A stretch of DNA of 64,000 bases, from sequence record LC494302.1. The stretch is one strand, 5' to 3'. The DNA comes from Escherichia phage SP27. Below, piece after piece: positions 1,511 to 13,952 of this stretch; the stretch's first letter is position 1, and each line of letters begins with the position of its first letter. Both the position numbers and the translations under genes were made by a program. The notes under the pieces were generated by a model. That model was not told the origin of the DNA and did no database searches. It was given only the letters and a program-made list of their open reading frames with translations.

Positions 1511-1943
1511 ATGCGTTATAGTTGTGGTATAATATTTTATCGTGATGGTCAGATACTTATCGGACATACAACACGGACAGAATCATTGGGATTTACCTAA
1601 AGGGAAAGCTGAGGGTAATGAAACTTTCAAAGAAGCTGCTGTACGTGAATGTTTCGAAGAGACAGGATACGAAATCGATGAAGATGATCTTCTGTTTCTT
1701 GGTGATGTATCCTATAGAAAGGGAAAAAGGTTAGTACTTTTCTTTTATACTGCCAAAGACAAACCAATACCAGATGAATTAGTTTGTAAAAGTACTTACA
1801 CTAATAGATATGGTAAGAGTCATCCAGAATTGGATAAGTTCATGTACATTGATGTACGAGAATGTCAAAAGTATTTGACTGAACGAATGTGTAACAGTAT
1901 TATTAAAGCTGTTAAAGCTTTTCAAAGAAATAGAAGGAAATAA
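1511..1943 (+). CDS. NUDIX hydrolase interrupted by an apparent +1 frameshift at about 1583-1590 (pseudogene, programmed frameshift or sequencing indel)
   Basis: ATG 1511 with AAGAGA RBS encodes MRYSCGIIFYRDGQILIGHTTRTES (Nudix first strand) and stops at 1598-1600; the Nudix box GKAEGNETFKEAAVRECFEETGY is in the 1542-1943 frame. Confidence 0.6.
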
Positions 1944-10734: not shown

Positions 10735-12842
<2,108 letters not shown>

Positions 12843-12869: not shown

Positions 12870-13406
12870 ATGAATAGATTACAACAAATCCTAACTGAAA
12901 AGAAACCAGTTTATGAATACCGAGTTAAGTTTGCAGTTGAACCAACACCTGAGCAACTTAGTAAAGTAACACAGCGACTAATGGATCGCTATGATGCGTT
13001 TGAAATTGGAGCACTAAAGAAAACAATTTTTATGGAAAAACCATTAGATTTCTATGAATTAGATTGTGGTGAAATTTGGATGTTTGACTTTAAATGTCAT
13101 CGTGGCGTTCAATCAAATGTACTAATGTATGAAATTGGCAATTTACTAAGCATGACAGAAGCATTGATTCGTGTTCGTAGTAAAGATGAACCTCGTCAAA
13201 TTGAAATGACTGATTTGGAAGATGATATCGATTTTGATGATGTTGATGAACCAGTTATTGGAGTGGATTTTGGTAAACCAGAAGACAGTTATGACTTAGC
13301 TGGACAACAACGTGCAAACACTGCCGTTGATGATGCAATTGAAGCATCGAAAAAAGACAATAAATACTCTCAATATATGAGTGCTGGTTTTGGTAAAAAG
13401 GATTAA
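12870..13406 (+). CDS. Hypothetical protein (178 aa)
   Basis: ORF with RBS; acidic mid-region (DLEDDIDFDDVDEP). Confidence 0.5.
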   Translation: MNRLQQILTEKKPVYEYRVKFAVEPTPEQLSKVTQRLMDRYDAFEIGALKKTIFMEKPLDFYELDCGEIWMFDFKCHRGVQSNVLMYEIGNLLSMTEALIRVRSKDEPRQIEMTDLEDDIDFDDVDEPVIGVDFGKPEDSYDLAGQQRANTAVDDAIEASKKDNKYSQYMSAGFGKKD

Positions 13407-13409
13407 CAC

Positions 13410-13952
13410 ATGAGTATACTTAATGAAATGTTAGATTATGAAGACAATGAGTTAAATGAAGCTCGTCCTTATAGTCGTTCACAAAGTGCAGTTGATAGTG
13501 CAAAAGGAAAAGTAAAAGGCTTTTTTGGTAGTGGACAGATTGAACAAGGTGCACAAGAAGTTGGTGCTGAAGCCAACCGCTTATGGGCAGAGTTTAAACG
13601 TTATGTTGGACGTAAATATGGTAAAGCTCAACCATCAGTACCTTACGCTGATGTGGCACAGTTTTTTAAAGGTAACAATCTTGATATTAAACATTTAGGG
13701 AACAATCCTCGTCGTTCTTTTACACCAAAAGATGTAGGTACTGCTCTATTAAATGCTGCTCGTGATATAATGAATGACTACCGTGACCAACAAGGTGGCG
13801 AAGAAAGTTCAGAATCACAACCATCACAATCGACCTCAACTGAGCAACCAGCACAACAAGAACAACCAAAAGCACAAGGTTCCAGTATCCCTGATGCTCT
13901 ACAAAAATTAAGTCCAGAGCAACGCGACCAACTGTTACGTATGCTTTCTTAA
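13410..13952 (+). CDS. Hypothetical protein with a Q/S/E-rich tail (180 aa)
   Basis: ORF with AAGGAT RBS. Confidence 0.5.
   Translation: MSILNEMLDYEDNELNEARPYSRSQSAVDSAKGKVKGFFGSGQIEQGAQEVGAEANRLWAEFKRYVGRKYGKAQPSVPYADVAQFFKGNNLDIKHLGNNPRRSFTPKDVGTALLNAARDIMNDYRDQQGGEESSESQPSQSTSTEQPAQQEQPKAQGSSIPDALQKLSPEQRDQLLRMLS

Follow-up and report, generated by a model that had tools for sequence, protein, structure and literature searches.

The Nudix gene at positions 1511–1943 of the DNA analysed here poses a question of decoding: its coding sequence is divided between two reading frames, so how, if at all, is the intact enzyme made? The DNA (hereafter "the window") is a 64,000-nt stretch of Escherichia phage SP27 (LC494302.1), and all features described below lie on its plus strand. 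Over positions 1400–2000 the DNA matches Escherichia phages PBECO4, SHEFM2K, JP4 and others at 100% identity, and 121Q and Sharanji at 99.8%; by its sequence, the window is that of an Asteriusvirus jumbo myovirus. A preliminary description of this DNA recognized the split and offered three readings of it: a pseudogene, a programmed +1 frameshift, or a 1-nt sequencing insertion. The split itself is borne out, with a 29-codon ORF from the ATG at 1511 and the Nudix box in the +1 frame, and the comparative data presented here best support the second of the three readings, a programmed or corrective +1 frameshift.

Layout of the split gene and position of the junction

Frame A begins at the ATG at 1511 and runs for 29 codons (MRYSCGIIFYRDGQILIGHTTRTESLGFT; 1511–1600) to a TAA at 1598–1600, which would end the unshifted 29-aa product and whose position is not conserved, lying two codons later in phage A4. 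Frame B, the +1 frame relative to frame A, is open from 1533 to 1943 and contains HWDLPKGKAEGNETFKEAAVRECFEETGY, the canonical Nudix box (G31–Y53, GKAEGNETFKEAAVRECFEETGY; 1602–1670). No single reading frame runs through the gene. Specifically, codons 1–21 (MRYSCGIIFYRDGQILIGHTT; 1511–1573, ATG to ACA), as delimited by the reading frame and the orthologues, are in frame A, and codons 22–143 plus the stop (1575–1943, GGA to the TAA at 1941–1943), which specify GQNHWDLPKG, the Nudix box and then the C-terminal helices, are in frame B. The two ORFs stand in a 0/+1 relation and together match homologues that are single ORFs.

Two start codons are candidates for initiation. The ribosome-binding site that the preliminary description placed before ATG 1511 is present as AAGAG, but it is a weak one (−2.9 kcal/mol against the anti-Shine–Dalgarno, in the bottom 20% of the window's ORF starts by strength), nearly equal to the similarly weak site (−2.8 kcal/mol) of an internal frame-B ATG at 1545–1547. 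The internal ATG, which arises from the Asp-Gly codons GAT GGT of frame A, is the GenBank start of a 132-aa "nudix hydrolase." All annotated Asteriusvirus records inspected use this ORF (136 aa in Ecwhy_1 and BF17), none of them annotates a frameshift, and we found no mention in the literature of a frameshift in the Asteriusvirus Nudix gene. A consensus scan returned a promoter-like site with an extended −10 (GGGACA, 16-nt spacer, TG-TATAAT) at 1442–1469, ~40 nt upstream of ATG 1511, which we regard as tentative; the scan gave 5 sites vs. 4.2 expected, and a second promoter-like match, at 1493–1522, is at chance level. In Yersinia phage fHe-Yen9-03, a −10/−35 signal is annotated for the same gene.

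A CCA-adding tRNA nucleotidyltransferase precedes the gene, which is followed by a glutaredoxin, a pair of small ORFs and a macro-domain protein. In the window the Nudix and glutaredoxin genes are separated by TAA-C-ATG alone (1941–1947), and natural Nudix–glutaredoxin fusions of 225–227 aa (PF00293 + PF00462) occur in several relatives (P0011, P0013, P0015, P0016, P0020, and P0023; L027 1516–2199). Together, fusions and tight spacing suggest a functional link between the two proteins.

Alignment with relatives locates the frame change. The window reads GGA CAT ACA ACA C GGA CAG AAT CAT TGG, and the DNA of in-frame relatives reads GGN CAY ACN ACN GGN CAR NNN CAY TGG, which leaves one extra nucleotide, C1574, between the Thr21 codon ACA (1571–1573) and the Gly22 codon GGA (1575–1577). 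In the zero frame this nucleotide, missing from all relatives outside the genus, begins a CGG (Arg) codon at 1574–1576; the shift cassette ACA ACA C GGA CAG spans 1568–1580, with ACA as both the proposed E-site and the proposed P-site codon. Because the in-frame orthologues read ...GHTT-GQxH-WDLPKG, homology places the junction at C1574, ~10 nt further upstream than the shift near 1583–1590 suggested previously. The earlier proposal to join TRTES directly to WDLPKG gave the correct length at the cost of G22, Q23, and H25, conserved in the family, in whose place it puts R-T-E-S. Ortholog alignment, proposed as a check in the preliminary description, shows that the orthologues are encoded in one frame and share the MRY(S/T)CGIIF N-terminus, none of them starting at the internal Met. 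Nor is the match of frame A to the orthologues due to chance, since its 21 residues differ from those of the nearest in-frame orthologue, P0001 of an uncultured phage, at a single position (I17V).

Origin of the insertion and selection since

All Asteriusvirus records examined, which range from 81.6 to 100% nt identity, carry the extra C, as do independent ENA/Logan metagenome contigs. We compared 10 distinct Asteriusvirus sequences, from isolates and metagenomes, that share 81–100% nt identity (records compared include PBECO4, 121Q, ph0011, UE-S1, Ecwhy_1, BF17, TH47, JNE01, and A4), and ACA ACA C GGA CAG occurs in 10/10. With the same C in >30 independently sequenced GenBank genomes and several of the ENA/Logan contigs, a 1-nt sequencing insertion is ruled out. 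Outside the genus, all relatives carry the gene in a single frame, with the N-terminal pattern M-R-Y/H-T/S-C-G-I-I-F-Y-R-D-G-Q-I-L-I/V-G-H-T-T-G-Q-x-H-W-D-L-P-K-G; those checked were Eneladusvirus (Yersinia fHe-Yen9-04, Erwinia pEa_SNUABM_47, and Serratia BF), Salmonella Munch, Klebsiella RaK2 and K64-1, Cronobacter GAP32, Pectobacterium CBB, Xanthomonas XaC1, Erwinia Hallingskeid, and IMG/VR contigs. The closest in-frame outgroups, uncultured phages with the orthologues P0001 and P0002, are collinear with Asteriusvirus at 72–74% nt identity over 3 kb and are without the extra C. As the insertion is genus-wide and missing from the closest outgroups, it is a shared derived character of Asteriusvirus: the sequences indicate that one C was inserted between the Thr21 and Gly22 codons in the common ancestor of the genus.

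Two cases bear separate comment. A 1-nt length difference of 121Q-type genomes was considered as a repair of the frame and rejected, because it lies upstream of the annotated CDS, before 1545, and the gene at 1511–1943 is identical to that of the window. Escherichia phage CMSTMSU (MH494197.1, L022, "UNVERIFIED_ORG") was left out of the selection analysis; further frameshifts fragment both its CCA-enzyme and its Nudix genes, and the assembly looks low-quality.

Variation among Asteriusvirus lineages postdates the insertion and thus reports how the region has since been read. Across the 10 sequences, the N-terminal part (1511–1573) read in frame A has 9 synonymous and 1 non-synonymous changes (dN/dS proxy 0.03; binomial P = 7.7e-6), and the counts in frame B are 1 and 9, respectively. 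Seven of its eight variable sites are at frame-A third positions, and the eighth is a conservative Ile-to-Val change. The C-terminal part (1575–1940) has the opposite bias, its changes being 89 synonymous vs. 50 non-synonymous when read in frame B (dN/dS proxy 0.14) and 13 vs. 125 in frame A. The frame-A tail beyond the junction (1574–1597, RTESLGFT) has a synonymous to non-synonymous ratio of 1:4 in frame A and 4:2 in frame B. At the other end of the overlap, MVRYLSDIQH, the N-terminus of the 132-aa ORF, is not conserved (a ratio of 1:9 in frame B), and by this measure it is not a selected protein sequence.

These patterns indicate that both halves are kept as protein, each in its own frame, with the switch between frames coinciding with C1574. 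Selection on both halves in their own frames, which is strong, purifying and later than the insertion, excludes the decaying pseudogene that had been proposed; consistent with this, the further stops or indels that a pseudogene would be expected to gather were found in no good Asteriusvirus assembly. The cassette itself (ACAACACGGACAG) is invariant at 13/13 nt in all 10 sequences. Its four synonymous third positions are unchanged, vs. 59% of third positions variable gene-wide (P about 0.03), which suggests modestly that the nucleotides of the shift site are conserved beyond coding need.

What the two halves would form is a complete Nudix hydrolase. The signature GX5EX7REUXEEXGU is present as G31-KAEGN-E37-TFKEAAV-R45-E46-C-F-E49-E50-T-G52-Y, and Pfam recognizes NUDIX (PF00293; E = 7.5e-14), with the match beginning at profile position 7 in the fused 143 aa vs. 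26 in the 132-aa ORF. Alignment of the fused sequence with the Aquifex Ap4A hydrolase 3i7u has no gap across the junction. Among 44 family members, C5 and H19 are invariant and G6, L16, T21, G22, Q23, and H25 are at least 90% conserved. C92 (1785–1787) is also invariant in the 44, like C5 (1523–1525) and H19 (1565–1567), and H25 is nearly so; these four residues may form a metal-binding or structural site beyond the standard Nudix motif.

The AlphaFold model of the in-frame orthologue P0001 (82% identical; pLDDT 94.4) has strands at residues 2–8 and 14–20, ahead of the Nudix helix at 39–51, and the solved folds nearest to it are those of E. coli RppH, Ap4A hydrolases, and Dcp2. On this model, the frame-A segment is the β1–β2 hairpin of the Nudix fold, and the complete α/β/α fold is predicted solely when frames A and B are joined. 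T4-like nudE genes match the query in tblastn from residue 4 to about 119–139 (E about 1e-12, 33–37% identity). By both sequence and model, then, the gene is predicted to encode a T4 NudE.1-like Nudix hydrolase of the RppH/Ap4A-hydrolase/Dcp2 structural branch. T4 NudE.1 strips NAD caps in vitro.

Decoding of the junction and competing explanations

We propose that the 143-aa Nudix enzyme is probably produced by corrective or programmed +1 ribosomal frameshifting. Translation would start at ATG 1511 and proceed for 21 codons in frame A, until the ribosome paused with ACA occupied by peptidyl-tRNA-Thr and the A site presenting CGG, a codon expected to be read solely by the scarce tRNA-Arg(CCG) and one that the phage avoids almost completely. 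A fraction of the paused ribosomes would accept Gly-tRNA(UCC) on the +1 codon GGA at 1575–1577, skipping C1574, and would then run in frame B to the TAA at 1943, yielding a 143-aa product whose junction, GHTT-GQNHWDLPKG, would be that of the single-frame orthologues. Ribosomes that did not shift would release a 29-aa peptide at the TAA at 1598. The event would be of the type described for Ty3 and glass-sponge mitochondria—out-of-frame binding of an aminoacyl-tRNA at a hungry A-site codon—and not prfB-type slippage, as P-site ACA cannot re-pair as CAC with the anticodon UGU; the A-site codon is, moreover, a sense codon.

The codon data are consistent with slow decoding at this site. No codon is rarer than CGG in the window's 42 long ORFs (1/19,557 codons and 1/693 Arg codons), and the +1-frame codon that overlaps it at the junction is GGA. 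The sole in-frame CGG of the 42 ORFs is at ~12242, in an ORF at 11829–12257 (+), five codons before the stop (AAC CGG ATT GGA GTT TAA). No tRNAs were found in the 64-kb window. In the near-identical phage Sharanji, ARAGORN reports seven ordinary tRNAs, which include tRNA-Thr(UGU), tRNA-Gly(UCC) and tRNA-Arg(UCU) and none that reads CGG. The host tRNA-Arg(CCG) is scarce in E. coli, at 639 molecules per cell (PMC2790909). Codon rarity, the lack of a phage-encoded reader among these tRNAs and the scarcity of the host tRNA together predict a slow zero-frame A-site codon. Published tRNA counts vary between Asteriusvirus members, and on the minus strand of Sharanji (OR545507.1, L030) two members of the tRNA cluster, a 90-nt "tRNA-Met(CAT)" at 13374–13463 and a 92-nt "tRNA-Ser(ACT)" at 13471–13562, have long-variable-arm length and unusual anticodons.

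A phage-encoded tRNA-Gly(UCC) would favor decoding of GGA. By blastn against 22 phage records, this tRNA (L030 15882–15954) is confined to the PBECO4/121Q/UE-S1 subclade; a role as the required partner of the shift was rejected, because the tRNA is missing from other lineages that keep the frameshift. Searches for stimulatory elements were negative. RNA folds of 1568–1660 and 1500–1620 were no better than shuffled sequences (z = −0.72 and −0.14), no Rfam family matched, and no SD-like stimulator is conserved, the sole nearby candidate (GGA at 1562–1564) varying among GGA, GGG, and GGT. No other CGG- or AGG-linked +1 transition between frames in the 64-kb window was convincing, which points to a single-gene event and not to a genome-wide peculiarity of decoding.

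Shift efficiency may be low, as +1 re-pairing of the P-site tRNA is not possible. In E. coli, single-base deletion mutants show an aggregate suppression of 1–10% by −1 slippage, and a +1 shift at CCC_AGG, with an efficiency of 5%, rescues a single-base insertion in rpoB (PMC10861913). The alternative products would be told apart by their peptides: a +1 shift at C1574 predicts the tryptic junction peptide DGQILIGHTTGQNHWDLPK, the unshifted product DGQILIGHTTR, and an internal start the N-terminal peptides (M)VR / YLSDIQHGQNHWDLPK of the 132-aa protein.

The main rival to +1 frameshifting, though in our judgment an unlikely one, is a split enzyme, in which the 29-aa frame-A peptide (the β1–β2 hairpin plus a junk tail) and the 132-aa frame-B protein (from ATG 1545 or GTG 1542) would associate non-covalently into an active Nudix fold. 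The selection data on both halves fit it equally well, ATG 1545 is present in all Asteriusvirus sequences with an SD score matching that of ATG 1511, and the chance-level promoter-like match at 1493–1522 could give a short-leader transcript. However, ATG 1545 is incidental to GAT GGT of frame A and is found in the in-frame outgroups too, the 10 residues that its use would add are not conserved, and a hairpin peptide of 29 aa would need to be both stable and made in matching amounts. A split enzyme would also leave the invariance of ACA ACA CGG ACA G unexplained, and it counts further against it that we know of no precedent for a two-piece Nudix.

We consider it quite improbable that the 132-aa frame-B protein is the only product that matters, with frame A conserved as an upstream peptide of unrelated role or for some other reason. 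The GenBank annotations inspected all follow this reading, and Pfam still detects NUDIX in the 132-aa ORF alone (E = 1.2e-12). Such a protein would, however, be without two core β-strands and the family-invariant C5 and H19, and it is hard to see why the frame-A peptide should stay nearly identical to the orthologous in-frame N-terminus if it no longer acts as one.

Very improbable, in turn, is recoding by other means: a tRNA with an expanded anticodon loop (reading ACAC or CGGA), or loss of a nucleotide from the mRNA through polymerase slippage or editing. Either would be expected to give the same protein and the same pattern of selection, and the phage encodes its own tRNA-Thr(UGU) and tRNA-Gly(UCC). 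Against a quadruplet-decoding tRNA, however, Sharanji's seven tRNAs are ordinary, its tRNA-Thr and tRNA-Gly having normal 7-nt loops with no expanded anticodon loop found in either, and tRNA-Gly(UCC) is missing from several lineages with the frameshift. RNA polymerase slippage was rejected because the frame overlap (1533–1597) contains no homopolymer run of at least 5 nt. Finally, a non-functional remnant or an assembly or sequencing artefact is scarcely credible: the ORF is indeed interrupted, and the poor CMSTMSU assembly has more frameshifts here, but the C recurs in data from different laboratories and platforms, and the dN/dS proxies of the two halves are as low as those given above.

Known frameshifts and what the phage case would mean

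Known systems share parts of the proposed +1 shift. The bacterial +1 shift of prfB (RF2; CUU UGA C) involves a stop codon, re-pairing from CUU to UUU and an upstream SD. The phage shift would resemble it in being a bacterial +1 shift needed for a full-length protein and dependent on a slow A-site event, but it has none of the three features: stop codon, slippery re-pairing or upstream SD. In yeast Ty3 (GCG AGU U), the P-site tRNA does not re-pair, and a slow A-site codon admits the +1 aminoacyl-tRNA. The mechanism proposed for the phage is alike in lacking P-site re-pairing and in its slow zero-frame A-site codon; Ty3, in contrast, is eukaryotic and has a defined downstream stimulator, and none was found in the phage.

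The closest architectural parallel comes from the mitochondria of glass sponges (Hexactinellida), where T, or rarely C, is inserted directly 5' of GGA in cox3, nad6, and other genes, so that the zero frame acquires a very rare UGG or CGG codon, overlapping the common GGA of the +1 frame, within conserved flanks; the sponge shift is interpreted as Ty3-like because no slippery P-site is needed (PMC5009743; PMC2267718). The phage site, with C before GGA and CGG as its rarest codon, is strikingly similar in architecture. The settings differ, however: mitochondrial ribosomes with a reduced tRNA set and several sites per genome in the sponges, vs. a phage mRNA on E. coli ribosomes and one site in the 64-kb window.

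Within the same host translation system, an A-site CGG_C is predicted to be a +1 hotspot (FSscan), and the +1 product of E. coli yehP has been confirmed by mass spectrometry (PMC2790909). The yehP shift yields an alternative, truncated product and is accompanied by SD-like and E-site features, whereas the phage shift would be needed for the only full-length enzyme and has no conserved SD-like element. Indels fixed in a needed gene and rescued by few-per-cent frameshifting at a rare Arg codon are documented for herpesvirus thymidine kinase (PMC5009743) and E. coli rpoB (PMC10861913). The phage case as proposed shares the fixed indel, the needed gene and the rare Arg codon, but those are recent drug-selected mutants, whereas the phage indel has persisted while an entire genus diversified. 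As for the enzyme itself, the protein is homologous to T4 NudE.1 (gene e.1); T4 e.1, however, is a single ORF, and the activity of the Asteriusvirus enzyme is a prediction.

Might the frameshift have been kept as a regulatory device, a translational sensor dosing an NAD-cap or ADP-ribose hydrolase? We regard this as rather doubtful. If it were so, dependence of the shift on slow reading of CGG would tie enzyme output to charged tRNA-Arg(CCG) during infection, which could vary with infection stage or with host tRNA-targeting defences; the gene has a CCA-adding tRNA repair enzyme on one side and a cluster with glutaredoxin and macro-domain genes on the other.

The best-supported reading is that the Asteriusvirus Nudix gene is a new, unannotated case of hungry-codon +1 frameshifting, taking place on E. 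coli ribosomes. We know of very few +1 frameshifts that bacterial ribosomes are required to make, prfB being the textbook case. If the reading is true, there would be a genus-wide required +1 frameshift in an easily grown E. coli phage and, should the regulatory interpretation also apply, a natural Ty3-like, non-slippery +1 programmed frameshift on bacterial ribosomes. The base-before-GGA architecture common to the phage and sponge mitochondria suggests a mechanism shared by ribosomes generally, rather than a peculiarity of organelles. Public annotation of the gene is likely incomplete throughout the genus, the 132-aa ORF being without two core strands and two invariant residues. As the NudE.1 group is linked to NAD-cap removal, the level at which this enzyme is expressed may matter for the conflict between phage and host over NAD.
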